Origin: Eledone cirrhosa
Taxonomy: Eukaryota
Direction: 5' to 3'
Length of the DNA stretch: 64,000 bases
Assembly: GCA_964016885.1 (NCBI GenBank)
Contig: OZ024743.1
Coordinates: 330,522,001-330,586,000 of the forward strand
Part shown: one piece after another, positions 3,957 to 46,471 of the stretch
Position numbering within the stretch: the stretch's first letter is position 1
Layout of the letters: each line of letters begins with the position of its first letter
The notes under the pieces: model-generated
What the model saw: only the letters and a program-made list of their open reading frames with translations
The model's database searches: none
What the model was told of the DNA's origin: nothing
Translations under genes and position numbers: made by a program

Positions 3957-3987
<31 letters not shown>

Positions 3988-4204: not shown

Positions 4205-9135
<4,931 letters not shown>

Positions 9136-10047: not shown

Positions 10048-10106
<59 letters not shown>

Positions 10107-10230
10107 TAGATATTTATATATATAGATAGATATTTATATATATAGATAGATATTTATATATATAGATAGATATATATATATATAGATAGATATTTATATA
10201 TATATATAGATATATATATATATAGATAGA

Positions 10231-10288
<58 letters not shown>

Positions 10289-10333
10289 GATATATATACA
10301 TATATATATATATATATTATAGATATATATACA

Positions 10334-10409
<76 letters not shown>

Positions 10410-10511
10410 TAGATATTTATATATATATATATATATATAGATAGATATTTATATATATATATATATATATATAGATAGATATTTATATATATATATATAT
10501 ATATATATAGA

Positions 10512-10578
<67 letters not shown>

Positions 10579-10613
10579 TAGATAGATATTTATATACATA
10601 TATATATATATAT
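10048..10613. repeat. (TA)n array with recurring GATAGATATTT unit
   Basis: Directly visible. Confidence 0.9.
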
Positions 10614-11060
10614 ATATTGTTATACTTGGGGAGGATCATATTTGTGTAATATTGCCAGAATTAATAACAGAACACACTCACTGTTTGGTTGGTTTTCGCT
10701 TCTCGCTTCTGTGTCTTTTATATCGGTAATCTAACTTACTCGGTCCTCAATATAGACAGACTGAATAAAAATGGCGTAGACATACAATACAACAGGAGGA
10801 AGATATAACACCACTGACGATGTTGCAGATGTGCAACGAAAGATTTATGATAAACTATATATATGTGTTTGTGTCTATATTGTATCTGTATTATTTTTGA
10901 CCGTCGGTCAGTCAATGGCAACATTGAGGACCGAGTAAGTTAGATTACCGATATAAAAGACACAGAAGCGAGAAGCGAAAACCAACCAAACAGTGAGTGT
11001 GTTCTGTTATTAATTCTGGCAATATTACACAAATATGACCCTCCCCAAGTATAACAATAT
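10614..11060. repeat. Inverted repeat, ~138-bp near-identical arms (10614-10751 and 10923-11060)
   Basis: ATTGTTATACTTGGGG...CGGTCCTCAAT is reverse-complemented at 10923-11060. Confidence 0.9.
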
Positions 11061-11397
11061 TTGTTTCGACACACGATTTCATATAAACAACCTCGCAAAA
11101 CTAATATATATAGATATATATATATATATACGGTTATATATATATACATATATATATATATAGATAAATTTCTATTTATTTGCCACGAGGGCACAAAAGA
11201 AGGGGACATTTACACAGTGGGGGAGTTTACATAAATCGAGTAAAGAAAAAGGAATAACAATAATAATATAACAATAAAAAGTCCTCAAAAGGGAGGGGGC
11301 GTGTTGGGGATTGCACATACCCCCGAAAAGTGTGCAACTCTTTTCGCGGGGGAAGCCCAGAGAGGAGGCGCTCCCCCTTTCCTCTTCACTTCTTCAC

Positions 11398-14300
11398 CTA
11401 CAGAACAATGTAGAGAGAAGGCCCATTTACACGGGCCATTCTCGCTTCTTTCACCCACCTTTCATAAAACTGTCTGGGACCAAGCACTTCTCTCTCCATC
11501 CTGATTCTTCTTCCGAAGTGGTATCGGAAGAAGTAAACCAGGTGATGGCCGGAGAGAAAGTCACCCGACCTCAGACCTTTCAGGCGCGTCCACCACACAA
11601 CCTCTTTCATCATGGCTATTACGCACAGAAAGACCGCCTCTGCTTCATTTCTGAAGGGAGGAGGCGGCTTGATGTTCACTACAGACTCGGCGGTTAATCG
11701 AATCGGCGCCACACGCGACAGCAGTCGGTCGACGTAGCCCCACAGATCGGCAACGCCCGGGCAGTGTACCAGTGCATGCGCAACGGTTTCCTCGTCGCGC
11801 ACGCATCTGGGACAGATCTTTTTCGCGGGATCCCTGCCCGGGCGCCCGTGTCTGTAGAGCTTTTCTCGAACGGGCAGAGCCCCCCGGTAACACTGCCAGG
11901 CTAGGGACCTCTGGAAGTTGTCCATGGGTCCCGGGCCGAAAGTTCTACCGAACAGGCTGGCCAGTTCGTCCTCCTCCATGCCTAGCGACTCTCCAAGGGT
12001 GTCGTCGCCCCTGCTAGCCACCAACCCTCTATAGAATGTCGAGGTGGATTCTCCACTGACAGTCGGGTCCGCTTGCCAGATAGCCGTGAGCGCCTGGGCA
12101 CACTCAGTGTGCCAGTTGCCCAGTTTTCTCGGTCTTTGCTTCACCCAGGATTGCAGTTCGGTGAGCGAGACGAGCTGTGGGAAGGCTCGCCTCACAAACG
12201 GGGCCCACACCGGCTGACCGTTGCGGAATACCTGTAGATGCCGTAGCCTCAATGCGTGCCTACGCATCAACAGCCACGGCATACCCAGCCCTCCTTTCGA
12301 AGGGTGCTGGCAGCAGATGGATCTCCTCACCATGGGAGGCCGCTTCTTCCAGAGGAACTGGAAGAGCATGCGTTCCATGATGGTGAGCTTTTCCTTGGGG
12401 CAAGGCACGACGGTCAGGCGGTAGTAGATGACGGACGCTATGTAAGCGTTCGTCACCTCCGCCCGACCTTTCAGTGATAGTTTGCACTTGGCCCACTTCT
12501 GGGTCAGCGCAAACACCCTGCTCGTCACCTCGCCCCAATTCTTCTCCACCTGGAGGTCCGGTCCGAACCAGACCCCGAGCACCTTCACCGGGCCCTCCGT
12601 CCACCGCCCGACGACACCGTCTAACGGCATCGGTTTGCCCCTCCACGTTCCGAGTTGCAAACCGACTGACTTGTCCCGGTTCAGCTTAGCCCCCGTCAGC
12701 CTTTCGTATTCCTCCAGTAGGGTGGCGATCGCCCCGATTTCCGAGGCGTCCGCCACCATTACTGTTACGTCGTCGGCATAGGCCGAGACCGCTTTGTGCA
12801 ATCCCGGTTCCAGGGGTATGCCCCGCAGCAACTCCAACTTCCGCAGCAGTGGCTCGAGAGTCAATACGTACAGAAGGGAGGAGAGGGGGCACCCCTGTCT
12901 GATGGATCGGGTGATTTGAAACGGCTCCGAGAGGTAGCCGTTTACTTTAATCCTAGAGTAGATGTTGCCACTGTGCATGGCAGAAATCCAGCCCCTGAAA
13001 ACGGGTCCGAAGCCCGCCGCCGCTAGCACCGCATCCAGGTAACCATGGTCGACCCTATCGAACGCCTTAGATTGATCCAAGTTGATCAGGGCTCCACCAA
13101 AGCCGGGTTCGTAGCCAACCCTCTCTATGATGTATCGCATGAGGTGGAGGTTGTCGTGAATGGACCTGGACGGGATAGCGCATGTCTGCGCGTCTCCCAC
13201 CAAACCACCCACCACAAGCGCCAACCTCTTCGCCAACACCTTGGCCAAAATCTGTAACTCTGCATTCAGCAGAGTTATGGGCCTAAAGTTACTTAAGTCG
13301 TCCCCCTTGCTCTCGTCCTTCCTCACTAGCGTGACCACGCCCTTGGTCACAGAACAGGGAATTCTCCCGTTCTGTTGCCAGTTGCAATAGACAGCCTCGA
13401 GGAGTTCGGAGAACAAGACCGGCATAGCTAAATAAAGTTCGTATGGTAGACCATCGAGACCCGGGGATTTGCGTCTGCTGCATTGGCTGAGCGCTTCCCC
13501 GATTTCAGTGGCTGTGATTGGCCGTTCGCAGCACTCCGCTTCGCCGCTCGAAAGACGCGGTAGACCGTCGAGGTATGGACCGAAGTCCACATCCCCGTCC
13601 GGCCCCCCGCCACCTCCGAACAGTCGAGCAAAGTGCCTTTGAAAGGTCTCGCACATTCGCTCAGGTTCAAGGATCACCCGTCCATCCTGGTCTCGCAAAG
13701 ACCGAATGGTGGATTTAATCCCACTCTTGGCTTCTGTCACGCGGGCCCAGCTAACAGCTTTGGTCCCCTCGTTTCCTAAAGCACGTATTTTACTTCGGAC
13801 AACGCAGCCTTCGTGCTTCGCGTCAAAGAACTGGCTCAATGCCGTTCTCGTCGCTAACACTCTGGCTACGTCTCCGCTCCTAATCGCCTCTTCTAGTTTA
13901 TCTGTTAACTCCCTTTCCCTCCTATTTCTATTCGCCGCTAGTTCCTTACTGTAACCTATCGAACTTACTCTAATCTCTCTCTTTAGAGATATCCACCACC
14001 TACTGTTGACGATCGCTCCCGTCAACCGCATCTTAACTAAGCTACTAATCCGGTTTCTGTAATCTTTCTTTGTCGGTAAGGACAAGTTCATCTTCCAGTA
14101 ACCGGGACCCTGTCTATGCGTTCTATCAAGGTTGACCACGCAGGTTACTAATTTGTGATCTGAATAGCCAACCATGATCAGTTTTGGACAACTAAATACG
14201 TCCCTATCCTTACTCCTAACCAAAAACCTATCTAGGTACGATCTAGATTGTCCACTGCGGTTTGCCCAGGTCCAGGTTGGCGCAGTTGGACAATCTAGTC

Positions 14301-14826
14301 GAAATCTATCGACCAGGTCGAATCGATCGAGTAACCCCTTGAGGCTGCTACACCCCCCTCTATCGGGACATGCCCCTGCATAGTCCCAACGCGCATCTAG
14401 GATTCCATTCCAGTCCCCCACTAAAAGCAGGGAACGCGACGTTCCTAGAAAAGTCTCCAGACGTTGGAAGAAGTCGGCTCTCTCCGCCCCGAAGGGAGCA
14501 TAAAGACCGACCAGTCTGAAAGCCCCGCCTTCACCACCTCCGACGTCCAGCACCAGTAATCGACCCCCCGGGTCCGAGTGAACAATCTGTACGTCGAGAG
14601 TCAGACGTTTATCCAGCAGTACGGCAACTCCCCCCCCGCCTCCGGGTTGACAGAGAGATGCGTGCATCTCAAAGTCATCGAAGGCGGGCGCCAGCTGTCT
14701 CACGCTGCTGATCCGACTCTCGCAAACAACCATCACATCTATACTTTGTGACCTGAGGTCACTTAGAAGCTTTGCTTGCTTCCAAGCTGAGCTCAGGCCA
14801 CGCGCGTTCAAACAGCCAACTCTCAA
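11398..14826 (-). CDS. E2 ORF2: APE endonuclease / reverse transcriptase / C-terminal zinc finger (~1142 aa)
   Basis: NARGL, GDWN, YLDRF, SDH; QGCPLS, YADD; CPRC...HALVHC. No ATG at the start: the aligned start codon is ATA at 14835-14833. Confidence 0.95.
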   Translation of the reverse strand: MRVGCLNARGLSSAWKQAKLLSDLRSQSIDVMVVCESRISSVRQLAPAFDDFEMHASLCQPGGGGGVAVLLDKRLTLDVQIVHSDPGGRLLVLDVGGGEGGAFRLVGLYAPFGAERADFFQRLETFLGTSRSLLLVGDWNGILDARWDYAGACPDRGGCSSLKGLLDRFDLVDRFRLDCPTAPTWTWANRSGQSRSYLDRFLVRSKDRDVFSCPKLIMVGYSDHKLVTCVVNLDRTHRQGPGYWKMNLSLPTKKDYRNRISSLVKMRLTGAIVNSRWWISLKREIRVSSIGYSKELAANRNRRERELTDKLEEAIRSGDVARVLATRTALSQFFDAKHEGCVVRSKIRALGNEGTKAVSWARVTEAKSGIKSTIRSLRDQDGRVILEPERMCETFQRHFARLFGGGGGPDGDVDFGPYLDGLPRLSSGEAECCERPITATEIGEALSQCSRRKSPGLDGLPYELYLAMPVLFSELLEAVYCNWQQNGRIPCSVTKGVVTLVRKDESKGDDLSNFRPITLLNAELQILAKVLAKRLALVVGGLVGDAQTCAIPSRSIHDNLHLMRYIIERVGYEPGFGGALINLDQSKAFDRVDHGYLDAVLAAAGFGPVFRGWISAMHSGNIYSRIKVNGYLSEPFQITRSIRQGCPLSSLLYVLTLEPLLRKLELLRGIPLEPGLHKAVSAYADDVTVMVADASEIGAIATLLEEYERLTGAKLNRDKSVGLQLGTWRGKPMPLDGVVGRWTEGPVKVLGVWFGPDLQVEKNWGEVTSRVFALTQKWAKCKLSLKGRAEVTNAYIASVIYYRLTVVPCPKEKLTIMERMLFQFLWKKRPPMVRRSICCQHPSKGGLGMPWLLMRRHALRLRHLQVFRNGQPVWAPFVRRAFPQLVSLTELQSWVKQRPRKLGNWHTECAQALTAIWQADPTVSGESTSTFYRGLVASRGDDTLGESLGMEEDELASLFGRTFGPGPMDNFQRSLAWQCYRGALPVREKLYRHGRPGRDPAKKICPRCVRDEETVAHALVHCPGVADLWGYVDRLLSRVAPIRLTAESVVNIKPPPPFRNEAEAVFLCVIAMMKEVVWWTRLKGLRSGDFLSGHHLVYFFRYHFGRRIRMEREVLGPRQFYERWVKEARMARVNGPSLYIVL

Positions 14827-14831
14827 TTGAT

Positions 14832-16667
14832 CTATTTTGGTGTTGAAAGTGAAGAAAGAAAAGCACTTACCTCTCCGGGTTGCGTAATTTCCATGGCATC
14901 AGGTGTGTTGGGTGGAGGGATGTTTTGTGGTGGTGTGGGGGTACACGTGTGTGGTGGGGTTGGGGTATTTGGAGTTGTGTCAGGGAGAGGGGCGGTTATG
15001 GGGAAATCTTTCAAAAGGACGCGATTCAACGGTTTTAAACAGGGGGGGCTCACGTCCCGTCTAAATTGTTCTTTTAAGGAACGATAAAGGTCCAGAGGGA
15101 CCTTTATCATTTTTAAATGGGTGAAGTTCTCTGTTGAGATAAAGTTTGGCCCTTCGGTCTGCACCATAGGGTTATTGTTTATTAATTTAACCAGTTTTTT
15201 GTTTTCTTTATTTATATATGTGTATTGCAACGTCTTTTTTTGTGATGCTGTCAATGTTTCGGAGAGGGGAGGCGCAGATTTATTTTTGTTTGTTGAGGGT
15301 GGGGTGTTTTTGATTGGAGTTGGTGTTTGTGTGTGGGTTATTTGTGGTGTGCTGGGTGTGTGTTTTCTTTTTTTTCTTTTAACTTGTCTGAAGGCTTCTC
15401 CTCCTTCTTCTTCAGAAGTTGGGGGAAACTCTTCAGCGCTAGGTGGGAGGGACGTGTTGTGTGGTTGTTTTTTTTTTGCGGGAGGGGTAGATTTGTTACT
15501 GTTTTTTTTATTATTTGTTTGGAATGGGTTTTGTGGTGGTGGTGGTGGTAATGTTTGTGTCGTGCTTGTGGTTGGTAATGGTGGTGGTGATGTTTGTGTT
15601 GTGGTTGGTGGTGGTGATTTTTGTGTCGTGCTTGTGTTTGGTGCTGGTGGTGGTGATGTTTGTGTTGTGTTTGTGGTTGGTGGTGTCTGTATTTTGTTTG
15701 CTGTGTGTGGTATTAGTGTATTTTTGGAGGTGGGTGGTGCTGGTGTACTGTTTGTGGTGGGTGTGGGCAATAGTCCTTTTTGGGGGATACGTTTCGGGCA
15801 GTTAGCCTTAACGTGTCCCCTTTCCATGCATAAATAGCATGCTGGTCTTCTCCCCTCTACAATTATGTCTATTGGGGTAAGGTCATCCAGCCAGATGCGA
15901 TCCGGGATTTGTGCTATTCTTTCGGGCCTCATTTGGACTAGTATGTCGAGGCCCATTCCCAGGAACGCATCTCCAGTTGCCTTCCCCATTGACAGCATAG
16001 TGTCTTCGCCCATATCAATGAAGCCAGCAATAGCCCACCAGAAGTCCATTGTGGGCAGCATTGTTTTTACTTTTATTCTTTGTGTTCTTCTACCCATGTA
16101 GGAGGGATAGAAGCTATATGTTGTCGACGAGAGTGGGCTTAGGGAAAGCTGAACCGCCGTTTCTTTGTCTCTTGTTAGGACCGAAATGCTGCCATAGAGT
16201 CGGTCCTTTCGTATGAAGAGAATATTCTTCATATAGTCTTTTAGGACTAACTCTATTTCCATTTGGCTGGGCTGTGCTGGCTTTCTTGACTGGTTTAGTA
16301 TAGTTCTGTATATAACTGTGTTTTCTGCTCTGGCTTTCTTGAATTCTGGGGGGGAGTTAATGGAAAACATTCCGTTCTCCCCCAAAACAATATGTTTCTT
16401 TGCTTCGGCCAGTTTTTCTCTGGCGGCAGTTAGGTCAATTGGTGTGTATGTAATGGATTGCTTTGTTTTCTGGGCGAAAGTTGCCCTGTCGTTATTTGTA
16501 TTATTTTCTGTTTGTTTGTTTTCTGTTTGCTCATTTTCCTTAACATTTGTTTTTTCATTTTGTTTGTTTGTTTCAATGTCTAATTTTGTTGTAATTATTT
16601 TTTGTTCTTCAGACTTGGGGGGCGTGGCAGAGCTAATGGCAGACATGTCTGCCATCTTTTCCGCCAT
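14832..16667 (-). CDS. E2 ORF1: nucleic-acid-binding protein with CCHC knuckle (611 aa from ATG 16667)
   Basis: CYLCMERGHVKANC knuckle, Pro/Thr-rich linker, basic KRKKRK tract; lies directly upstream of ORF2. Confidence 0.9.
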   Translation of the reverse strand: MAEKMADMSAISSATPPKSEEQKIITTKLDIETNKQNEKTNVKENEQTENKQTENNTNNDRATFAQKTKQSITYTPIDLTAAREKLAEAKKHIVLGENGMFSINSPPEFKKARAENTVIYRTILNQSRKPAQPSQMEIELVLKDYMKNILFIRKDRLYGSISVLTRDKETAVQLSLSPLSSTTYSFYPSYMGRRTQRIKVKTMLPTMDFWWAIAGFIDMGEDTMLSMGKATGDAFLGMGLDILVQMRPERIAQIPDRIWLDDLTPIDIIVEGRRPACYLCMERGHVKANCPKRIPQKGLLPTPTTNSTPAPPTSKNTLIPHTANKIQTPPTTNTTQTSPPPAPNTSTTQKSPPPTTTQTSPPPLPTTSTTQTLPPPPPQNPFQTNNKKNSNKSTPPAKKKQPHNTSLPPSAEEFPPTSEEEGGEAFRQVKRKKRKHTPSTPQITHTQTPTPIKNTPPSTNKNKSAPPLSETLTASQKKTLQYTYINKENKKLVKLINNNPMVQTEGPNFISTENFTHLKMIKVPLDLYRSLKEQFRRDVSPPCLKPLNRVLLKDFPITAPLPDTTPNTPTPPHTCTPTPPQNIPPPNTPDAMEITQPGEVSAFLSSLSTPK

Positions 16668-16747
16668 GCTGCCAAGAAAGAAATTTTTCGGCAAAAATAG
16701 ATATTTATTTTACCCCCTAAAAAGGGGGTAAATGCAAAAATGTTTCC

Positions 16748-16807
16748 CTAAATAACAGGGGTTAGTGTTCCAAATGTGTTGCACTAAAAAATTTATCCGT
16801 TACTTAC
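16748..16807 (-). promoter_or_regulatory. Putative 60-nt 5'UTR intron of E2
   Basis: GTAAGT donor at 16807, branch-like ACTAAC, TTATTTAG|G acceptor at 16748. Equivalents at the same position in E4, E6 and E7. Confidence 0.6.
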
Positions 16808-16870
16808 AATAGTAAGGGTAAATCCCGATGGAATAGCGGAGCCGATGCGAAGCGTGTCTTACTCTATCAA

Positions 16871-16906
16871 GATAGATAGATAGATAGATAGGTATATAGA
16901 TAGATG

Positions 16907-16941
<35 letters not shown>
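16871..16941. repeat. (GATA)n microsatellite joining E3 3' end to E2 5' end
   Basis: Directly visible. Confidence 0.95.
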
Positions 16942-16942
<1 letters not shown>

Positions 16943-16943
16943 T

Positions 16944-19900
16944 ATTTCTTTTATTTGCCACTAGGGCATCAAAAGTGGGACAAGTACAAAGGGGGGAGTT
17001 TACACAAAAAGGCATCCTCAATAAGGAGGAGGCAATAACAAAATATAAAAATAAAATAAGATATAACAAAAAATAAAATTTTTAACAAAATCCTCAATAG
17101 AGAGGAGGCGCCTTGGGGGTTCGCACACACCCCCGAAAAAAGTGTGCAACCCTTCTCCTCAGGAGCACAGAGAAGGGGTGCTCCCTTGGTCTTTCATCTT
17201 CCTCACCTATAGTCTGATGTAGAGTGAAGGCCCATTCACACAGGCCATTCTCGCCACTTTCACCCATCTTTCATAGAAACGGCTGGGGTGCAGCACCTCT
17301 CTCTCCATCCTGATCCTTCTTCCGAAATGATATCGGAAGAAACGGACCAGTTGTTGGCCAGAGAGAAAGGTGCCCGACCTCAGTCCTTTCAGACGCGTCC
17401 ACCATACAACCTCTTTCGCCATGGCTATTACGCACAGAAACACCGCCTCTGCTTCATCTTTGAAGGGGGGAGGCGGCTTGATCATTACAATAGACTCGGT
17501 GGTCAACCGGATCGGTCCCACCCTTGACAGCAGTTGTTCGACATAGCCCCACAGATCGGCTACGCCCGAGCAGTGTACTAATGCGTGTGCAACGGTTTCC
17601 TCGTCGCACACGCATCTGGGACAGATCTTTTTGGCGGGGTCCCTACCCGGGCGCCCGTGTCTGTAGAGCCTTTCTCGAACGGGTAAAGCCCCTCGGTAGC
17701 ACTGCCAGGCCAGGGACTTCTGGAAGTTGTCCATAGGTCCCGGGCTGAATGTCCTACCGAACAGGCTGGCCAGTTCGTCCTCCTCCATGTCTAGGGCTTC
17801 TCCGAGGGCGTCGTCGCACCTGCTGCGTACCATCCCTCTATAGAATGTTGCGGTGGAGTCTCCACTGATAACCGGATCCGCCTGCCAGAGGGCGGTGAGC
17901 GCCTGGGCACACTCAGTGTGCCAGGCGCCCAGTTTTCTCGGTCTTTGCTTGACCCAGGATTGCAGCTCGGTGAGTGAGACGAGTCTGGGAAAGGTTCGTC
18001 TCACAAACGAGGCCCACACCGGTTGTCCGGTGAGGAATACGTAGAGGTGCCGTAGCCTTAATGCGTGTTTACGCATCATTAGCCACGGCATCCCCAGCCC
18101 TCCTTTCGAAGGGTGTTGACAGCAGATGGATCTCCTCACCATAGGAGCCCGCCTCTTCCAAAGGAATTGGAAGAGCGCGCGCTCCATCTTGGTGAGGGTT
18201 TCCCTTGGGCAGGGCACTACGGTCAGGCGGTAGTAGATGACGGACGCTATGTAGGTGTTCGCCACCTCCGCCCGACCTTTCAGGGATAGTTTGCAACTGG
18301 CCCACTTCTGGGTCAGTGCAAACACCCTGTTCGTAACCTCCGCCCAGTTTTTCTCCACCTGGAGGTCCGGTCCGAACCAGACCCCGAGCAACTTCACCGG
18401 GCCCTCCGTCCAGCGTCCGACGACGCTATCGGAGGGCATCGGTCTGCCCCTCCACGTGCCGAGTTGCAAACCGATCGACTTGTCCCGGTTCAGCTTAGCC
18501 CCTGTGAACTTTTCGTACTCCTCTAGTAAGGTGCCGACCGCCTCGATTTCGGAGGCCGTCGACACCATTACTGTCACGTCATCGGCGTAGGCCGACACCG
18601 CTTTCCGCAATCCCGGTTCCAAAGGGATGCCCTGCAACAACTCCAACTTCCGCAGTAGTGGCTCGAGAGTCAACACATACAGAAGGGAGGAGAGAGGGCA
18701 CCCTTGTCGGATGGACCGCGCGATTTTGAACGGCTCCGAGAGGTAGCCGTTCACCTTGACCCTAGAGCAGATGCGGCTGCTGTGCATAGCAGTGATCCAG
18801 CCCCTGAAAACGGGTCCGAAGCCTGCCGCCGCTAGCACCGCATCCAGGTAACCATGGTCGACCCTATCGAACGCCTTAGATTGATCCAAGTTGATCAGAG
18901 CCCCACCAAAGCCGGGTTCGTTCCCAACCCTCTCTATGATGTATCGCATGAGGTGGAGGTTGTCATGGATGGACCTGGACGGGATAGCGCATGTCTGCGC
19001 ATCTCCCACCAGGTTGCCCACGACAAGCGCCAACCTCTTTGCTAGCACCTTGGCCAAAATCTGTAACTCTGTATTTAGCAGTGTTATGGGCCTGAAGTTA
19101 CTTATTTCGTCCCCCTTGTTCTCGTCCTTCCTCACTAGCGTGACTACGCCCTTGGTCACAGTACAGGGAATTCTCCCGTTCTGTTGCCAGTTGCAGTAGA
19201 CCGCCTCGAGGAGATCGGGGAACAAGTCCCGCATAGCTAGATATAATTCGTAAGGAAGACCATCGAGACCCGGGGATTTGCGTTTGCCGCATTGGCTCAG
19301 CACGTCCTCTATCTCAGCGGCCGAAATCGGCTCCTCGCAGGACTTCGCCTCCCTGTCCGAGAGGCGCGGCAGGCCGTCGAGGTATGGACCGAAGTCCACG
19401 TTCCCAACCGGCTCCCCGCCCCTCCCGAACAGTCGGGCAAAGTGCCTTTGAAAGGCCTCACACATCTGCTTAGGCTCAAGAATCGCTCGTCCATCCAGGT
19501 CTCGCAAAGACCGGATGGTGGATTTAGTTCCACTGTTGGCCTCTGTCACGCGGGCCCAGCTAACAGCTTTGGTCCCCTCGTTCCCTAGAGCACGTATTTT
19601 ACTTCGGACAACGCAGCCTTCGTGCTTCGCGTCGAAAAACTGGCTCAAAGCCGTTCTCGACGCTAGCACTCTGGCCACGTCGCCGCTTCTAATTGCCTCT
19701 TCTACTCTATCTATTAGCTCCCTTTCCTTCCTATTCCTATCCGCAGCTAGAACCTTACTAAATTCTATCGAGACTACTCTAATCTCTCTCTTTAGAGATA
19801 CCCACCACCTGCTGTTGACGATCGCTCCAGTCAACCGTTCCTTAACTAACGTACTAATCCGATTCCTGTAGGCTCTACTTGCCGGCAAGGACAAGTTGAG

Positions 19901-20823
19901 CTTCCAGTAACCGGGGCCCTGTCTATGAGTTCTGTCAAGGTTGACCATGCAGGTCACTAATTTGTGGTCTGAATAGCCAACCATGCGCATTTTTGGACAA
20001 CTTAAAAAGTCCTTATCCTTAATTCTAACTAAGAACCTATCTAGGTACGACCTAGATGATCCGCTACGATTTGCCCAAGTCCAGGTTGGCGCAGTCGGAA
20101 AATCTAGTCGATATCTATCGGCCAGGTCAAATCGACCGATTAACCCTTTGAGGCTATTACACCCCTCTCTATCGGGGCAGGCCCCTACGTAGTCCCAGCG
20201 TGCATCTAGGATACCATTCCAGTCCCCCACTAATAGCAAGGAGCGGGACGTCCCTAGAAAAGTCTCCAGACGATGGAAGAAGTCCGGCCGCATTGACTCG
20301 AAAGGGCCGTAGGCGGCTACCAACCTAAACGCTCCGCCTTTACCACTGCCAAGGTCCAGAACCACTAGTCGACCCTCCGGGTCCAAATGTACCGTCTGTG
20401 TTGCGAGACCCAGATGTTTTTGCAGCAGAACGACAACTCCACCCCCACCTCCGGGCTGACAGAGAGATGCGTGCATCTCAAAGTCATCAAAGGTGGGGGC
20501 CAGCTGTCGCACGTTGCTGATCCGGGCCTCGCAAATAACCATCACATCTATACGTTGTGACCTGAGGTCATTTAGAAGCATTGCTTGCTTCCAAGTTGAG
20601 CCCAGGCCACGCGCATTTAAACAGCCTACTCTTAGCATAGCCATGTTGGTGGTGAAGAGAAAAGGCACTTACCTCTCTGCGTCCCGGGTATCGGGCTGCT
20701 CAATTTCCATTAGGGTGGGGGATGGGTTGTTGGGTGGGGTGGTGGTTTGTGGAAGTGTGGGGGCATCAGTGTGTTGTGTGGTTGGGGAGCTTGGAGTTGT
20801 GAGGGTGTTTGGGGAGGGGGTGG

Positions 20824-20824
<1 letters not shown>
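16944..20824 (-). mobile_element. E3: 5'-truncated L1/Tx1-type element with intact ORF2
   Basis: Intact ORF2 plus only ~150 bp of the ORF1 end; (TATC)n on both sides; same subfamily as E7. Confidence 0.95.
17207..20644 (-). CDS. E3 ORF2: APE endonuclease / RT / zinc finger (1145 aa from ATG 20644)
   Basis: Uninterrupted ORF with all motifs; CAACATGG start context. Confidence 0.95.
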   Translation of the reverse strand: MAMLRVGCLNARGLGSTWKQAMLLNDLRSQRIDVMVICEARISNVRQLAPTFDDFEMHASLCQPGGGGGVVVLLQKHLGLATQTVHLDPEGRLVVLDLGSGKGGAFRLVAAYGPFESMRPDFFHRLETFLGTSRSLLLVGDWNGILDARWDYVGACPDREGCNSLKGLIGRFDLADRYRLDFPTAPTWTWANRSGSSRSYLDRFLVRIKDKDFLSCPKMRMVGYSDHKLVTCMVNLDRTHRQGPGYWKLNLSLPASRAYRNRISTLVKERLTGAIVNSRWWVSLKREIRVVSIEFSKVLAADRNRKERELIDRVEEAIRSGDVARVLASRTALSQFFDAKHEGCVVRSKIRALGNEGTKAVSWARVTEANSGTKSTIRSLRDLDGRAILEPKQMCEAFQRHFARLFGRGGEPVGNVDFGPYLDGLPRLSDREAKSCEEPISAAEIEDVLSQCGKRKSPGLDGLPYELYLAMRDLFPDLLEAVYCNWQQNGRIPCTVTKGVVTLVRKDENKGDEISNFRPITLLNTELQILAKVLAKRLALVVGNLVGDAQTCAIPSRSIHDNLHLMRYIIERVGNEPGFGGALINLDQSKAFDRVDHGYLDAVLAAAGFGPVFRGWITAMHSSRICSRVKVNGYLSEPFKIARSIRQGCPLSSLLYVLTLEPLLRKLELLQGIPLEPGLRKAVSAYADDVTVMVSTASEIEAVGTLLEEYEKFTGAKLNRDKSIGLQLGTWRGRPMPSDSVVGRWTEGPVKLLGVWFGPDLQVEKNWAEVTNRVFALTQKWASCKLSLKGRAEVANTYIASVIYYRLTVVPCPRETLTKMERALFQFLWKRRAPMVRRSICCQHPSKGGLGMPWLMMRKHALRLRHLYVFLTGQPVWASFVRRTFPRLVSLTELQSWVKQRPRKLGAWHTECAQALTALWQADPVISGDSTATFYRGMVRSRCDDALGEALDMEEDELASLFGRTFSPGPMDNFQKSLAWQCYRGALPVRERLYRHGRPGRDPAKKICPRCVCDEETVAHALVHCSGVADLWGYVEQLLSRVGPIRLTTESIVMIKPPPPFKDEAEAVFLCVIAMAKEVVWWTRLKGLRSGTFLSGQQLVRFFRYHFGRRIRMEREVLHPSRFYERWVKVARMACVNGPSLYIRL

Positions 20825-20859
<35 letters not shown>

Positions 20860-20864
20860 TTTAT

Positions 20865-20959
<95 letters not shown>

Positions 20960-21055
20960 GATATATATATATATATAGATATATATATATAGATATATAT
21001 ACATATATATATATATATATACATATATATTTATATATATATATATATACATATA

Positions 21056-21097
<42 letters not shown>

Positions 21098-21102
21098 TAT
21101 AC

Positions 21103-21165
<63 letters not shown>

Positions 21166-21300
21166 CATACATATATATATATATACATATATCTATATAT
21201 GTACATATATATATATATATATACACATATACATCTATATATGTACATATATATATATATATATACATTATATACATTATATATATATATATATACATTA

Positions 21301-21336
<36 letters not shown>

Positions 21337-21403
21337 CCTATATATATATATATATATACACCTATATATATATATATATATATATGTATATAAATATATA
21401 TAC

Positions 21404-21450
<47 letters not shown>

Positions 21451-21461
21451 AATATATATAC

Positions 21462-21509
<48 letters not shown>

Positions 21510-21523
21510 ATATATGTATATAA

Positions 21524-21555
<32 letters not shown>

Positions 21556-21615
21556 GTATGTATATAAATATATATACATATATATATATATATGTATGTA
21601 TATATATGTATATAA

Positions 21616-21659
<44 letters not shown>

Positions 21660-21661
21660 AC

Positions 21662-21695
<34 letters not shown>

Positions 21696-21702
21696 ATATA
21701 TG

Positions 21703-21749
<47 letters not shown>

Positions 21750-21763
21750 ATATATGTATATAA

Positions 21764-21805
<42 letters not shown>

Positions 21806-21819
21806 ATATATGTATATAA

Positions 21820-21861
<42 letters not shown>

Positions 21862-21875
21862 ATATATGTATATAA

Positions 21876-21919
<44 letters not shown>

Positions 21920-21960
21920 ATATATGTATATAAATATATATACATATATATATATATATA
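20860..21960. repeat. Interrupted (TA)n array with a higher-order unit in its distal half
   Basis: Directly visible; TATGTATGTATATATATGTATATAAAT recurs at about 21380-21950. Confidence 0.92.
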
Positions 21961-22000
21961 ATAATATATAAGATCAAAAGATGGTTAAAAGAGTTCCATG

Positions 22001-24440: not shown

Positions 24441-24474
<34 letters not shown>

Positions 24475-27400
24475 CTGTTTTCTTTATTAACCACAAGGGT
24501 TTACATAAAGTAGACATTAAGGACAGTACAGGACAATACAGGACGGTACAAATGGGCATTTCTGCGAGTAAAAAAACAGAGGATGTAATAAAATAACAAA
24601 GAAAAATTCCCCAATAGGGGGGAGACTTCCGAGGGACATTTGTGGAGAAAGCCCATTAAAAGACCACAGTGACCCTGACCACCAGGGCAAGTGCCCTCTC
24701 CCAGTTTTCCACCTTTCATTTACAGACACATACTCAGAGAAGGCCCATTCATTCGGGCCATACTTGCTTCTCTCACCCATCTTTCAACAAAATGCTGGGA
24801 AGAGAGCACTTCCCTCTCTACCCTGATTTTCCTTTTCAAATGAAATTTGAAACAGTTAATCAGGGCATCACCGAAGAGGTAAGTGCTCGTCTTCAGCCCT
24901 TTCAAACGTGTCCACCATACTATCTATTTCGCCATGGCCACCAGACAGATAAAAACTGCCTGCCCTTCCCGGCTAAAGGAAGAGGGCGGGGCAATCCTCA
25001 CGATGGACTCAGCTGATAGCTGGATCCGTCCTACACGTGACAGCAGGTGTTCGACATAAACCCACAATTCAGCAATGCTCGGACACGGGACGAGTGCGTG
25101 CAGGACGGTTTCGTCGCCCTGTGCGCATCTCGGACATGCCCGGCTGACGGCACCTCCATGCCTGTAGAGTTTATCCCGAACTGGCAAAGCTCCCCGGTAG
25201 CACTGCCAGGCCTTTGATTTCTGGAAGTTGTCCATAGGCCCCGGCCCGAAAGTCCTTCCGAAGAGATTGGCTAGTTGATTTTCGTCGACGCCTAGAGTTT
25301 CTCCAAGTACGTCGTCGCTCTTCCCCTCCACTAATCCTCTATAGAACGCCAAGGTGGAGTTTCCACCGATCACATTGCCCGATTGGTCGAGGGCTGTGAG
25401 CGCCTGAAGATATTCCAGTCTCCAAGCGCTCCCTCTCGGTCTTCGCTTGACCCAGGACTGCAGCTCCGCCAAGGAGACGAGCTGGGGAAAAACGTGTCTA
25501 GCAAACGGCAACCACACCTGATCACCGTCGAGGAAGAGGTGGAGATGTCGTAGCCTGAGCGCGTGTCTGCGCATCATCAGCCACGGCATGCCCAGCCCTC
25601 CACGTAGCGGGTGTTGACAGCAGATGGACCGCCTGACCATCGGAGCGCGTCCCTTCCACAAAAAGCGAAAGAGCAAACGCTCCAGCTCAGTCAGGCGGGG
25701 CTTAGGACAAGGTACGACGTTCAGGCGGTAGTAGATGACGGACGCGATGTACGCGTTAGCCACCTCCGCTCGACCTTTCAGGGATAGCTTCCTCTCGGCC
25801 CATTTCTGGGTGAGAGAAGCCACCCTGCTCGTCCCTGTCCGTCTGGAGGTCTGGACCGAACCAGACCCCTAGCAATTTAACCGGTCCGTCCGTCCAGCGC
25901 CCGACGACGCTGTTGGACGGCATGGACCTGCCTCTCCAGGTGCCGAGCTGCAGGCCCACTGACTTTTCCTGGGTGATCATTGCTCCTGTCACCGCTTCGT
26001 ATTCTCTTAGTGTAGTGCCGATCGCCTCGATGTGTTTGGCGTTCGAGACCACTATGGTGACATCGTCCGCATATGCTGACACGGATCTTCCGCATCCTAG
26101 TTCGCGAGGGACCCCCCTTTAACGTCTCCAGTTTGTGCAGTAATGGCTCGAGAGTCAATACGTACAATAGGGACGAGAGGGCACATCCTTGGCGGACCGA
26201 GCGCATGATGTTGAACGGTTCCGAAAGGTGACCGTTCACTCTCACTACAGAGCAGATGTCGCTGTGCATGGCAGCGATCCTGCCTCTGAAGACGGGCCCA
26301 AAGCCAGCCGCTCTCAGGACTGCCGCTAGGTAATGATGGTCGAACCTATCAAAGGCTTTCGACTGATCTAAATTGATCAAAGACCCACCTGTGCCAGGTT
26401 CCCTAGCTACCCTCTCTACGATGTATCGCATGAGGTGGAGGTTGTCGTGGATGGATCTGTCGGGAATGGTGCATGTCTGCGCCTCCCCCACCAGACCACC
26501 AACGACAAGCGCCAACCTCTTTGCTAGCACCTTGGCCAAAATCTTGAACTCTGTGTTTAGCAGAGTTATGGGCCTAAAATTATCTATGTTATCCCCCTTG
26601 TTCGGATCCTTTATCGGCAGCGCCACCGCTCCTCGGCTCACAGAGCTGGGATTTCTCCCGTTCTGTTGCCAGTTGCAGTAGACGTCCGCCAAGAGGCCTC
26701 CGAACAAGTCTGGCATTTGTACGTAAAGTTCATAGGGCAGACCATCCAAACCAGGCGATTTACCCCTTGTGCAGCCAGTCATTGCCTCCCGTACTTCAGC
26801 GGCTGTTATCGGCTTTTCGCAGCACTCCGCCTCAGTGGCTGAGAGCCGCGGCAGTCCGTCGAGGTAGACACTAAAGTCCATCCCTCGATCCGGCCCGCCA
26901 CTGCCCCCGAACAGTTGAGCGAAGTGTCGCTGAAAAGCTTCACACATTTGCCCGGGATCGAGTAGCATGCACCCGTCGTAGTCCACCAAAGACCGGATCG
27001 TGGCTTTGTTGCCACGACGCGCCTCCACCACTCGCCCCCATTGAACGGCTTTCGTCCCCTCGTGTCTGAGAGCACGCACCCTAGCTCTGACAACGCAGCC
27101 TTCATGCTTTGCATTGAAGAATTGGTCAAAGGCCAATTTCGCCGCAAGTACGTCGGTCGCGATGCCTTTGCAAAGCGCCTCGTCTAATTTTCTAACTAAT
27201 TCTCCCTCTGCTCTATTTTTCTCTATTGCTAAAGCCTTACTAAACCTAATGGACTCTATTCTAATTGCTCTTTTCAGAGCAAACCACTACTTGTTGTTGA
27301 CGATGGCCCCCGTCAACGCCCGCTTAACTAGTTCGCTAATCCGGTCTCTGTAGGCCTTGCACGCTGGTAAGGACGCGTTTAGCTTCCAGTAGCCGGGTCC

Positions 27401-30350
27401 TCGTCTATGAAGCCTATCTAAGTCAAGCACACAGATCACGAATTTGTGGTCCGTGTAGCTGACTATCTTGAATTGTGGACAGCCTATGCTAGACCTATCT
27501 ATTTCCCTACAAAATACTCTATCTAGATATGATCTGGATGACCCTATGCGATTTGTCCAAGTCCACATGGTACATTCGGGAAATCCAATTGGTACCTGTC
27601 AGACAGTTCAAAACGCCTGCGCAGGTTGGTGAGACTCTTGCACCCTCTTTCCCTATCCACTAATCCCACACAATCCCAACGTGCATCTAAGATCCCGTTC
27701 CAGTCGCCCACTAACACTAAAGAGCGGGACGTTCCAAGAAAGGTCTCCAGACGCCGGAAGAAATCAGGCCGCCCTGCTCCTGTCGGGGCATAGACGGCCA
27801 CTAACCTGAAAGCTTGCTCGTCTCCGCTGGTCACGTCCAGCACCACCAACTTACCTTCTGGGTCCAGGAAGATGGCCCGTATGGCAAGATCCAAACTTCT
27901 CCGAAAAAGCACAGCAACTCCTCCCCCCGATCCCGGACGGCTGGGAGATGCGTACACATCGTAGCCGCCGAAGATCGGTGCGAAGGCCCGTGCTTCGGAG
28001 ATTCTCGTCTCGCTGATGGCCACTACATCTATGTTTAGTGACCTGAGGTCGTTGAGCAGGTGGCCCTGCTTCCATGACGACCCCAAGCCACGCGCATTTA
28101 TGCTGCCTATTCTGAGTGAGGTCATGTTGAAAAGGAATGGAAAAGATGGGAAAGACCACTTACCTTACTTCTTGTAGAGGAAGGACGGTTTTTCCATCCT
28201 TTTCACTGCTTGTGGCCTCCTCAGGAAGGATGTCCTTATAAACCCTCCTGGAGAGTGCTTGTCGGAAGTCTCCGATGTCTTTGGGGAATTTTTGTTTTAG
28301 TGTCATGTACGTTTTCTGTGTGATGCGAGTGATTTGTATGTGTGGAGGTGGTGTGAATTTTTGGGTTGTTGTGTAGTCTTTTTCTGTGATGCTGGTGTTG
28401 TGTTGGATGTAGTGTAATAATTGCTTGTTGTTCAAATTTAATGCTGTGTAGTGTGTATCGTTTTGGTTGTTTTGTTTTGTTTGCGTTTGTTGCTGGTTTG
28501 TTTCTGTTTCGCATTTTGGTGACTTTTGTGGTGTAGGTGATGGTGGTGTTGGGGTTAATGATGGTGATGGTGTTGGTGTTTGGGGTGATGGCGTTGTTGA
28601 TGCTGGTGTGGATGGTGGCATATCTGTCCTAACTTTTTTGTTTGTTAATTTATTTGTTTCCCTCTGTATTTTGTTTTTGGAGGGGGAAGGAAGAGACTTT
28701 TTTCTTTTTTGGTTTCTTTTTTTTTTCCTGATACCGGTTCCCACTCCTCGTCGTCACAATCTGTCTCCAGTTGTGATAGGCCGGGGAGTGGAAAATCCTC
28801 CACAGGCGTTAGTTTTGGTTGTGGCGTGGTGGATGGTGTAGGCGCTGGTGCTAGTTCTGAAGCGTTGGGTGGTGATGGTGTAGGTTTTGCTGGTGGTGGT
28901 GGTGTTGGTTTTGCTACTGTTGCTGGGGTTGTTGCTGTTATAGTTGCTTCTGTTGTTGCTGCTACAGTTGTTGCTGCCATCTCTGCTACTGGTGGTGTTG
29001 ATGGTTTAGTCACTGGGGTGGGTAGGAGAGGTGGCCTCAACCTTTTAGCCTGAGGGCAGAAAGCCCTTAGGTGGGTTCCTTCACCACAAACGACACACCT
29101 AGGCCTTCTGCCGTCGACAATTACGGTGAGGTGGCTGCCGTCAGTGAGGTCTATTATCTCTGGGATCTCCGCAATGCTTTTTTGGTCCCCTTGGATTAGG
29201 AGCTCCATCCCAGATCCGGACCAGTTCTCCTGCTTTTCTTTTGCTATTGCTATTATCTTTGTGTTGGCTTCGATGCCGGCGAGGACGGCCGCTATTAGCC
29301 AGGGAATTTCGATGGCCGGTGGAACGTGGGTCACCCTGATCTTTACGAGTCTCTCGCCACAATAGCTTGGGACGAGTGTGAAGTCGTCACTTCTTAATGG
29401 GGCCATGGAGTGTTCTCTAGCCTCCTCTGGTGTTTCAAAGCACACGTCCACGGTTCCATACTTCTGCCCACGTCTGATGTGGGTTTTTCTTGCCCACACA
29501 TTCCCAAAGCTTTTTGGATTTGGGACTCGGATGCCCGTTCCACTCGGCGCGATTTTACATTTATTGTTCGATACGACACGGTGCATAGGCGCCGATGCTC
29601 CATTTTATTAGGTGTGGGGGTGAGGCTGACCCTGTACCCATCTTTCTTTACCATTTGTTTGGCATTTTCTAAATCCTCCTGAGTTACCGTAAATGCTTCG
29701 AACTGTTTTGCTACTCTGGCAAAACTCAGGGTGGTTTTTTTAATGTCATTGTTGTTGTTGCTATCGTTATTTTTGTTATTATTAATTTTAGTTTCAGTTG
29801 TGGTGGTGGTGACGTCAGTGGAGTTCGGTTTGGAAGAGTTCATTTTGGTTGAAAATATTTCGACATCACGAGTTGATTTATTTTTTCCTTTTGTTTCTGT
29901 TGTCGCGGTCGTGGTGAGGGTGGTGGTTGTCGCGGTGGTGGTGGTGGTGGCGGCTTTAACACCTGCAGTCATTGGTAATGGCGGGAAATGAATGTCTGCC
30001 TGAGACAAATTTAAAATATTGCTAGTGCTTAAATTGTTTGTGTTGGCAAACGTAATATCATTTACCATGGTGGTGTCGGTGTGAGGTGTTAATTTGTGAG
30101 GAAGGCTTTCAGCTGCTTGGTGCAGAGGTGAATTAGCCATTTTTTTTTCAAAGAAATTTGTTGATAATCATAAAAGTTTAAATTTGGGGCACAAGGTCCC
30201 AATCTCTTTGGGTGTCCTTTTCGGAAAACAATGTATGTGCGCTTATATATAGTTAACAATAAAAATTTTCCATAAATGGCAATTTTTAACAAACGGAAAT
30301 AACAAACCTTTGCGGAGCTCACGATGATACGATTTACTACGTAGGTCGCC
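24475..30350 (-). mobile_element. E4: full-length but decayed L1/Tx1-type element in (TAT)n
   Basis: ORF1 fragments 28160-30140 (CVVCGEGTHLRAFC), ORF2 fragments 24720-28125 (GDWN, QGCALS, YADD); (AAT)n at 24451-24474 and 30351-30371. Confidence 0.93.
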
Positions 30351-30371
30351 AATAATAATAATAATAATAAT

Positions 30372-33300
30372 GATTTCATTTATTGGCCACAAGGGCCGAC
30401 ATATAGGGGATAATACAAAAGACTGGGACAGTGGGGTTTTACAGAAAAATCGAGTAAACAATATGAATAAACAAAGTAACAATGACAAAGTAAAAATAAA
30501 GTAACAAGAAAATTACAACAAGAAAAAATTCCCCAATAGGGGGGATAACCACCTAGGGTTCGCTCAGGTACTCCACCAGTCCTGAACAACCCGACGCTTC
30601 GAGAGCACCCTGGAAGGGCACCCCTCTCCTCTTCAAATTTACCTACCTACAGCCGCATGACCAGAGTAGGCCCACTCACACGGGCCATTCTCGCCACATT
30701 CACCTACCTTTCAGCAAATGTACTGGGGGGCAGCGCTTCTCTCTCCACCCTTACCTTCCTTTCCAAGTGAAACTTGAAAAAGTTGATGAGGGATTGGCCG
30801 AAGAGAAAAGTGTCTGTCTTCAGTCCTTTCAACCTCGTCCACCATACAACCTCTTTCGCTACTGCCACCAGACAGAGGAAAATTGCCTGCCCTTCCTGGC
30901 CAAAAGAAGGTGGCGTGTCGATCTTCACTATGGACTCGGCCGATAGCGGATCCGTTCTACACGCGACAACAGCCGTTCGACATAACTCCACAAGTCAGTA
31001 ATGCACGGAGTAATGCACGGACACTGGACGAGTGCGTGCAGAACGGTTTCGTCGCTCTGCGCGCATTTTGAGCAGGTTCGTCTGATAGCACTTCCGTGCC
31101 TGTAGAGTTTATCTCGAACCGGCAGTGCCCCCCGGTAGGACTGGCAAGCGAGGGATTTTTGGAAATTATCCATCGTCCCCGGCTCGAAAGTCCTCCGGTA
31201 CAGACTGGTTAGTTCGACTTCGTCGACTCCCAGAGCAACCGAGCAAAATGTTGGCGAAAGGCCTCACACATCCTGTTGGAATCGCTCAGCTCGTGCCCGT
31301 CTCGGTCCGTCAAAGACCGAATCGTGGTTTTATTACCACGCTGCGCCTCTGCCACTTGGGCCCATCGAACAGCTTTGGTTCCCTCGTTTCTCAGAGCACG
31401 CGCCTTACCTCTGACAATGCAACCTTCGTGTTTCGCATTGAAGAAATGGTCTAATGCCATTCTCGCCGCTAGCACGTCAGTTGCAATGCCACTACCAATA
31501 GCCTCGGCTAACTTATCTACCAACTCCCCCTCCTTTCTATTTTTCTCTAATGCTACTTCTTTGCTAAACTCTATCGACATTACTCTAATCTCTCTTTTGA
31601 GAGCCCCCCACCATCTATTGTTGACGACTCTCCCTGTCAACTTTTTCTTAACTAAATTGTTGACCTGGTCCCTGTAAGCCTTACGTGCCGGAAATGAAAT
31701 GTTTAGCTTCCAGTAACCAGGTCCTAACCTACGCCTCTTATCTAGGTCGACTATACAGATCACAAACTTGTGATCTGAATAGGCGACCGTTTCAAAACGT
31801 GGACAGCTTACACTATTTCTGTCTATTTTCCCAATGAATATCCTGTCTATATACGATCTAGATGACTCTATGCGGTTAGCCCAGGTCCACACTGGCGCAT
31901 TAGGGAAATCTAGTCGGTACCTGTCAGACAGTTGGAACTGGCTGATCAGGTTCTTGAGGCTTTTGCACCCCCCGCTCCTATCGGATACTCCCACACAGTC
32001 CCAGCGTGCTTCTAAGATGCCGTTCCAGTCCCCCGCTAACAGTAGGGAGCGAGACGTACCCAGAAAGGCTTCCAGGCGTCTAAACAAGTCCGGCCGCCCT
32101 GCCCAGTAGGAGTATAGACGACCACCAGTCTAAAGGCACCACCTTCGTTATTGTTCACGTCCAGGACCACGAACTTCCCGTCCGGGTCCCGGAAGATCGA
32201 CCTTACCTCGAGATCCAGGCCTTTCCTAAACAGCACTGCCACCCCCCCCCCCCCCCCCATTCCCGGCCGGCTAGCAGATGCAAAGATCTGATAGTCGTCG
32301 AAAATGGGGGCTAGTGCGCGCGAGGGGAAGTTTTACTTACCTTCCGCGCTCTTGTGAAGGTCGGGTTGTTCGACCTCCATAGTTGGTGGGGTTTCTTTTG
32401 GGAACCGCTTTAAAAGTCTTGAAGTGGGTTTTACGTTCGGGGTTCCCACATCCCGAGGAAAGCTGTCTCGTATTTCTTTGAATATATCGAGCGCCATTTG
32501 CACCAGAACCAAATCTACCGGCACGCGAAATGTGCTCGATTTAAAATTTCCCCCTCTTTTTGTATATTTTCACTTCGTGCTACGAGGGCCATCAGTTCCT
32601 TGTTGGCCCTCCTGACGAGCACGAAGTTTTGTATGATTTGTTGGTGTGATTTTATTTGTTTGCGTGGCTGTGGTGGTGATGGTTTTGGTGGTGTTGTTTC
32701 GGTTGTATCTGTGTTTGTTGTGAGTGCGGTGTCTCTGGTTTCAGATGTTTGTGTGTATATTTTTGTTGCGTCTGTTTCGGTTGTTTGCGTTTGGGGGATT
32801 ATGGTGATGGTGGTGTTGGTGTTATTGGAGATATGTTTGCGTGGGTGGTGTCTGCGTTTTTTATTGTGTGTGCTTTTGTGCTTTGTTGAGTTTTTTTTTT
32901 CTTTTTGTGTTTCCTTTTTTGTATTTTGGGGGATTTTGGTTTTCCCTCATTTTCACTATTGGTAGATGAGGGGTCTGTATCTGTAAGTGTGTCTGTATGT
33001 ATGTTTATGGTTTTATTGGTGTGTGTATTTTTGGGGGGAGGGGAAATTTGACAGCTTTCCTCGTTTTCCCCCTGGGTGGTCAATGTTGGTGGTGGTCTTT
33101 CTATTGTTGTTGTTGTTGGTGGTTTTGCCGGTGCTGGTGTTGGTTGTGGTCCTCGCCCCGGCGACGGCAGCAGTGGAGCCTTTCGACCCCTTGCCTCTTT
33201 CAGCAGTTGAGGTCAGAAGGCTCGCAAATGGGTTTTTTCCCCACAAACATTTTGCCTTCGGTCATAATGTGAATCACCGTCCCATTCTGAAGGCGGATGT

Positions 33301-46404: not shown

Positions 46405-46471
<67 letters not shown>

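Follow-up and report, generated by a model that had tools for sequence, protein, structure and literature searches.

A 64,000-nt stretch of contig OZ024743.1 of Eledone cirrhosa (assembly size 3.0 Gb), referred to here as the window, contains eight related copies of long interspersed nuclear elements (LINEs), E1 to E8, which were identified by self-comparison with E3 as query. We propose, with a probability of roughly 0.8, that E3 and its closest relatives represent a young, likely still active LINE family of the L1 group with a fixed orientation of integration into (TATC)n/(GATA)n microsatellites, among them arrays that flank its own older copies. The evidence supports insertion specific to the microsatellite in two TATC-type subfamilies, called E3-type and E6-type, whereas E4 and E5 belong to a sister clade with (ATT)n at the 3' end instead of TATC.

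The repeat at both ends of the insertions

Copies of the E3-type were searched for with the last 158 bases of the 3' untranslated region (UTR) of E3, a query that ends short of the repeat, so that the flanks of the recovered copies were unselected. The sample comprises the best 40 of 79 candidates (92-100% identity), and the 39 copies outside the window were taken with 6.3 kb of upstream and 0.3 kb of downstream sequence; their junctions were placed by comparison with a full-length copy, and one rearranged locus (L016) was excluded. For the E6-type, the best 40 of 1815 candidates included 29 copies outside the window, and the count of 5' junctions was made on the 24 whose truncation point lies inside 1.5 kb of upstream sequence. 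An array was scored when at least 11 of 12 bases matched (TATC)3 and the end of the array lay no more than 10 nt from the 5' junction. This rule replaced a lenient unit count (one mismatch per unit, TATA accepted), which was positive at 16% of random positions.

By the strict measure, a TATC array was present at the 5' junction of 25 of 38 E3-type copies, that is, in 20 of 30 truncated copies, whose truncation points span positions 1802-5533, and in 5 of 8 full-length copies. Among the truncated E6-type copies it was present in 20 of 24. The same measure was positive at 129 of 20,000 random positions of the window and at 54 of 9300 positions of far-upstream flanks, about 0.6% in both controls. 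The remaining truncated E3-type copies lie within (TA)n (four copies) or in neither class of sequence (six copies). Inspection by eye showed at least one to two TATC units ahead of the (G)GGAT(G/A)GACAC start of each full-length copy, E2 and E7 included. An initial annotation of the window had claimed that the repeat is the target of insertion and not only a tail, pointing to the (TATC)n found directly upstream of the truncation points of E3 (20824-20859, nine units) and E8 (62588-62599, three units). Both arrays are there, and the claim extends to the genome: 40 of 54 truncated copies carry TATC at the 5' junction, and none ends in poly(A). The nine units next to E3 are read as the second half of a target array that was split by this copy.

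The orientation of the repeat is constant, as the same annotation had stated. TATC is on the sense strand of the element in every window copy flanked by TATC, and no array in GATA orientation was found at the 5' junctions of 38 E3-type and 24 E6-type copies (0 of 62 in total, with the TATC orientation in 44 to 45). A fixed orientation within (TATC)n across the genome indicates that the family likely homes to the TATC repeat. Beyond the upstream array, the script found unrelated sequence in 21 of 25 E3-type and 14 of 20 E6-type copies; the arrays that follow another LINE 3' end numbered 10 of 45 by script and 12-13 by eye, with L032 and perhaps L034 as well as L089 added. The upstream arrays are mostly free-standing and are not tails of older copies.

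The numbers of units upstream and downstream of the same copy are correlated (Spearman 0.47, p 0.003, with TATA also counted as a unit), and two-sided tests gave p values of 0.004 to 0.02 with the lenient count. Significance was not reached in a Fisher test that used a strict downstream window of 12 nt (p 0.08), many of the arrays on that side being short or degenerate.

At the 3' side, all eight window copies share the end ...GTGG(C/T)NAATAAA, which is followed by a GAAAnn linker and then by a microsatellite, and the spacing between AATAAA and the array is only 6-8 nt. The linker runs into TATC in E1 (3170-3199), E3, E7 (56273-56292) and E8 (61935-62026), and in E2, which ends AATAAATAGAAATT, into a single TATC unit, just as initially described; in E2, (TA)n comes next. 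Poly(A) is absent from all eight window copies, again in agreement with that description, and from 68 sampled genomic TATC-type copies. The E6 copy in the window does have the non-TATC 3' junction that had been pointed out (GAAACA, then TAACTATTATACACC...), but this does not hold for its subfamily, in which 25 of 29 sampled copies outside the window have at least two TATC-like units after the linker; the junction of the window copy is a one-off within the E6-type subfamily. At some junctions (L083, L011, L013, L032), (TGTC)n adjoins or replaces (TATC)n, forming mixed arrays of the GATA/GACA type, and in L083 the TGTC units directly follow a variant linker.

Just before AATAAA, all copies have a stem of 4 bp with a loop of 5 nt (NNCC-CNNGT-GGNN; positions 16958-16970 in E3). 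The stems differ between subfamilies by compensatory changes (TGCC/GGCA 42 times, AACC/GGTT 22 times, GGCC/GGCC 21 times), and in the abundant E6-type the outer pair of the stem is mismatched (TGCC/GGCT, 32 times). This structure may serve as a recognition hairpin.

Array-free copies, a possible mechanism and competing explanations

In seven copies without an upstream array, the downstream array is missing as well, and the linker is followed by no more than a single unit. Target-site duplications (TSDs) of 5-17 bp were found in six of them: TATCT in L003, TATATTTAT in L009, (TA)5ACAGGT in L020, TTATATCT in L025, TATCTTATCA in L036 and TATCnCACTCTCT in L108; L022 has none. The TSD starts with TAT or TTAT in six of the seven copies and begins directly after GAAAnn in five, which indicates that the copied RNA ends at the linker or at most one unit beyond it, and that the first target bases are TAT(C/A). 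Insertions in (TA)n read GAAACA and then (TA)n. Since array-free copies carry no more than one unit, and this unit belongs to the TSD, the arrays are target DNA and not a tail borne by the RNA. The arrays can therefore not stem mainly from a long TATC tail, whether RNA-borne or made by slippage. The 5' junctions of L036 and L077 contain short inverted fragments of the element, as expected of twin priming in L1-like integration.

These junctions suggest the following sequence of events. The endonuclease would nick the bottom strand and free a ...GATA-3' end. Base pairing of this end, or of a TATA-3' end, with UAUC at the 3' terminus of the element RNA, just after AAUAAA-GAAAnn, would prime reverse transcription; the transcript may run a few bases into the array, hence its terminal UAUC. 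With priming at UAUC after the linker, no poly(A) would be copied. The second strand would be cut at a distance of 5-17 bp or deeper within the array, and the position of this cut would leave a split array on both sides of the insertion, in full-length and 5'-truncated copies alike. Each insertion would also leave arrays open to new hits, which would produce head-to-tail chains. In the window, such chains joined by microsatellite are formed by E8-E7-E6, E5-E4 and E3-E2, one array (61935-62026) being both the downstream array of E8 and the upstream array of E7, and another sense-strand copy follows directly after the tail in at least 10 of 39 E3-type loci.

The site could be selected by the nuclease, by RNA pairing or by both, and the junctions would fit pairing and nuclease equally well. 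An APE-type (apurinic/apyrimidinic-like) endonuclease that is specific for (GATA)n/(TATC)n, as the initial annotation had inferred, might fix the target alone, with no selecting role for RNA pairing; this has been argued for site-specific elements of the R1 and Tx1 clades. The strict orientation, without a single GATA-oriented junction among 62, is what such an enzyme would produce, array-free insertions too start at TAT(C/A), and the literature credits mainly the nuclease for the target choice of APE-type site-specific LINEs (in the portions of PMC4494074 and PMC3812793 consulted). However, the pairing of primer and template predicts the same orientation and the same TAT(C/A) starts, the insertions in (TA)n and at TATATTTAT or TTATATCT show that sites matching no more than the final bases of the RNA are tolerated, and clades that differ in target show no unusual divergence of the endonuclease. 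We therefore consider an endonuclease acting alone unlikely, though it deserves to be kept in mind.

Many LINEs carry microsatellite tails, and (TATC)n might be such a 3' tail, derived from the RNA or from slippage of the reverse transcriptase (RT), in copies that were inserted at random sites. TAT(C/A) does stand straight after the linker in every TATC-type copy, and the ATT clade has long (ATT)n tails even where ATT is missing from the 5' flank. Against the roughly 0.6% found at control positions, however, an upstream array in 40 of 54 truncated copies makes this very improbable, as do the array-free insertions, whose single unit, where there is one, is part of the TSD. It is equally improbable that LINEs and microsatellites merely pile up in repeat-rich regions of low recombination, or that the chains arose by recombination or RNA template jumps: the window has an extreme density of microsatellites, with 221 rows of Tandem Repeats Finder output beside the eight LINE copies, and tails of other copies account for 10 of the 45 upstream arrays by script (12-13 by eye), but the arrays lie within 10 nt of the junction, in a single orientation, at loci distributed over many chromosomes, and the sequence beyond them is mostly unique.

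Several points weigh against integration of the family into TATC arrays as we describe it. No array of three units was found at the 5' junction of 13 of 38 E3-type and 4 of 24 E6-type copies, and the four E3-type copies in (TA)n are close to what the (TA)n background of 8-13% would give. The counts describe the 40 best-scoring matches per query and are not a census, the junctions were defined by BLAST with a slack of 10 nt, and arrays can lengthen or shorten once an element is in place. In the model, the RNA 3' end is itself inferred. Finally, contigs from four of 14 listed public runs were compared with L002, a young insertion of 663 bp between unique flanks; they end at the TATC arrays on either side and none spans the site. 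No empty allele was thus seen, and the picture of a split array rests on the flanks.

Contigs of two runs, X1 and X10, which are labelled as other organisms, contain the young E3-type sequence (L002:5648-6295), differing from it at 0-1 positions over 130-240 bases, without the unique flanks of L002. They may stem from close relatives, from samples that were mislabelled or mixed, or from transfer.

Coding capacity, activity and the sister clade

The second open reading frame (ORF2) of E3 matches the Pfam families Exo_endo_phos (the N-terminal APE domain), RVT_1, with YADD present in the RT, and zf-RVT; the last match reaches 24.7 bits, under the Pfam cut-off of 27.5, and a Cys/His motif (CX2C...H...C) is visible at the C-terminus of the translation. 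For the ORF1 product of E2, only a weak zf-CCHC match was obtained, with no Pfam family at E <= 0.001 and no match to Transposase_22. Human L1 ORF2p is the best solved relative of E3 ORF2 (E 4e-48, residues 8-857), R2 proteins are weaker (4e-19 or worse), and no R1Bm or TRAS1 endonuclease chain was among the PDB sequence matches at E <= 0.001. Relatives in protein collections have 39-44% identity over the full length, except for one fragment with 69%; nearly all are unnamed proteins, and no Tx1 or L1 reference was among the matches. Of those with a name, a hypothetical protein of Argonauta hians is the closest (67% identity over the RT region).

Judged from its sequence, ORF2 is assigned to the L1 group (L1 and Tx1), because ORF2p is its best match among solved relatives and because of the C-terminal Cys/His motif. 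The features of the strict mammalian-type L1 clade, poly(A) and an ORF1 protein of the Transposase_22 type, were not found, and the N-terminus of ORF2 is an APE domain, not the restriction-like endonuclease without APE that characterizes the R4/Dong clade. A paper on the repeats of Octopus vulgaris tabulates, in the part available to us, 13 recently active 'L1-Tx1' families and provides a lead only (PMC13282606).

Over 3888 bp, E3 and the full-length copy L005 share 99.85% identity. Pairwise identities of 99.7-100% occur among several truncated copies, and both ORFs are open in L003, L005 and L032. Open ORFs together with nearly identical relatives suggest that the activity of the TATC-type family is ongoing. 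No open ORF2 was found in 40 sampled copies of the ATT clade.

These 40 copies (L040-L079) were drawn from 1553 E5-type and 371 E4-type first-look candidates, and their 5' boundaries were set by comparison with a reference copy. All E5-type and E4-type copies end with AATAAA(T)GAAA(T/A)C followed by (ATT)n. By eye, (ATT)n directly precedes the full-length start GGTCTAAGCG in at least 15 of 20 sampled E5-type copies, and many of these upstream arrays follow another LINE or a SINE-like (short interspersed nuclear element-like) sequence. Among ten truncated E4-type copies, ATT is found upstream in only three and other trinucleotide arrays in two more, with a 5' inversion in at least one, while all ten have ATT repeats after the linker, mostly long. 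Long (ATT)n tails without upstream ATT suggest that part of the tail in this clade may be derived from the RNA or from slippage.

Between the TATC and ATT clades, identity is 58-61% in the endonuclease, 60-62% in the linker region, 61-63% in the C-terminus and mostly 75-79% in the RT (56% in one copy). Divergence of the endonuclease was considered as a sign of a target switch and rejected, the endonuclease being no more diverged than the linker or C-terminal regions.

A SINE-like element ends with ...GCTGGCCTTGTGCCTAAAGTAGAAACA and (ATT)n; it is found in the window at about 62600-62790 on the minus strand and also in L055 (640-745), L068 and L060. It occurs 35 times in the DNA examined, 29 times followed by ATT repeats, and the resemblance of its 3' end to that of the ATT-clade LINEs suggests a LINE/SINE partnership in this clade.

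A wider hypothesis, which we put forward only tentatively, is that these elements form an undescribed L1-group lineage, probably of cephalopods, whose (TATC)n and (ATT)n sister clades switched microsatellite homing sites by altering the RNA at its very end, that the target is then read by pairing and not by the nuclease, and that the partner SINE shares this mode. If true, site choice in an APE-type LINE would be RNA-guided and reprogrammable, and common to the LINE and its partner SINE.

Organization of the window and comparison with known elements

The features of the window are listed in Table 1. The 5' end of E3 corresponds to position 1843 of a 5728-bp full-length copy. The ORF2 of E7 is in pieces; 84 bp that are retained in E3 and in most genomic copies are deleted at about 57050 (position 4989 of E7 as excised). 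In the sister clade, the 5' end of E4 (GGCGACCTACG...) abuts the (ATT)n of E5.

Table 1. LINE copies, their reading frames and adjoining arrays in the 64,000-nt window of Eledone cirrhosa OZ024743.1
Feature	Position	Strand	Remarks
E1	1-3169	+	TATC-type copy cut by the window start; TATC array next at 3170-3199
E2	11167-16870	-	full-length, older TATC-type subfamily; ~84% identity to E3
E2 ORF2	11398-14733	-	
E2 ORF1	14832-16667	-	611 aa, one CCHC knuckle
TATC-type array	16871-16942	-	~18 units; downstream of E3, directly upstream of the E2 5' end
E3	16943-20823	-	5'-truncated; begins within ORF1, complete ORF2, 3' UTR ending ...GGCAAATAAAAGAAATA
E3 ORF2	17207-20644	-	intact, 1145 aa
(TATC)9	20824-20859	-	adjoins the E3 truncation point on the upstream side
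E4	24476-30350 (start approximate)	-	sister-clade copy; ends AATAAAGAAAAC + (ATT)n; tail ~24451-24475
E5	30372-32189	-	rearranged copy, second (ATT)n-type subfamily; tail 30351-30371
E6	50454-56272	-	most abundant TATC-type subfamily; 5' end abuts the TATC array of E7
E7	56293-61934	-	full-length E3-type, 94% identity to E3; TATC upstream at 61935-62026, downstream at 56273-56292
E8	62027-62587	-	short 5'-truncated TATC-type copy; (TATC)3 upstream at 62588-62599

The window contains 52 occurrences of the motif (TATC)3, where shuffled sequence would lead one to expect 0.06, and all matches flank LINE copies except those of a CT-rich stretch at 46.5-46.8 kb. This low-complexity region (46200-46800, plus strand) contains several short (TATC)n runs with no LINE end adjoining and is an example of the free-standing TATC arrays of the Eledone cirrhosa genome. 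The window also has very long (TA)n-type arrays (4205-9135, 10048-10617 and 20860-21970), one of which measures 4.9 kb; the long ORFs that were listed for 4.2-9.1 kb arise as artefacts from the (TA)n-type repeats.

To our knowledge, microsatellite homing by LINEs has been described for no more than a small number of repeat units. In the portions of PMC3812793, PMC4494074 and PMC4640811 consulted, the described targets are ACAY, AC, TC, TTC, TAA, TTCC/TTTC and TG, with that of HERO unspecified, and neither TATC nor GATA is among them. A full-text literature search likewise returned no LINE that targets (TATC)n/(GATA)n, a provisional result that does not extend to Repbase, Dfam or the targets of further Tx1 families in the supplement of PMC4494074; with the same proviso, the initial statement that the target matched no described family still stands.

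The closest parallels are Kibi and Koshi of teleost fish and the crocodilian (TTCC)n/(TTTC)n families, which are microsatellite-targeting, APE-type members of the Tx1 clade (according to the parts of PMC3812793 and PMC4494074 consulted). Like them, the TATC-type copies are LINEs with APE and RT domains that lie inside one type of microsatellite with the repeat on both flanks. The repeat unit differs, being TATC, or ATT in the sister clade, and not TC, TTC, TTCC or TTTC, and the closest named homologue, from Argonauta hians, hints at a cephalopod host and not at a vertebrate. Microsatellite targeting has been recognized by a target present in more than 20% of flanks (in the same portion of PMC4494074); here the values are about 66% for the E3-type (25/38) and 83% for the E6-type (20/24). 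With the repeat on both flanks, in truncated copies too, and in a fixed orientation, the TATC-type copies have the flanks expected of microsatellite-targeting APE-type LINEs.

Waldo ((ACAY)n) and Mino ((AC)n) are also APE-type and microsatellite-specific and belong to the R1 clade (PMC3812793, in part); among solved structures, the ORF2 of our elements matches L1 ORF2p. Dong of the R4 clade targets (TAA)n (PMC3812793), and LINEs of this clade have a restriction-like endonuclease (PMC4640811; both sources consulted in part). The sister clade with E4 and E5 resembles Dong in its target, (ATT)n being a trinucleotide repeat of equal composition to (TAA)n, but the LINEs of the TATC and ATT clades differ from it in having an APE domain.

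Human L1 has a poly(A) tail and nicks its targets at TTTT/AA, and its TSDs start with bases complementary to the tail. The TATC family would be similar to human L1 in its logic of priming, by a nicked end of the target with complementarity to the RNA 3' terminus, and its TSDs measure 5-17 bp. It differs in having no poly(A), so that its RNA would end with UAUC instead of A(n), in an ORF1 without a Transposase_22 match, and in integration concentrated in one microsatellite. Eel UnaL2 and zebrafish L2 are LINEs of the stringent type, with a 3' stem-loop, short tail repeats and partner SINEs. The small conserved hairpin before AATAAA and the SINE-like element with the 3' end of the ATT clade are reminiscent of these L2-clade elements, but our elements are of the L1 group and their repeat is mostly derived from the target.

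Our findings show that a large share of the (TATC)n loci in the Eledone cirrhosa genome is interrupted, split and chained by LINE copies. Such interruption of arrays bears on microsatellite markers, on repeat annotation and on assembly, since public contigs break exactly at the arrays. A (TATC)n family and an (ATT)n sister clade within one genome constitute a natural pair in which the contributions of the nuclease and of RNA-DNA pairing to target choice can be set against each other.

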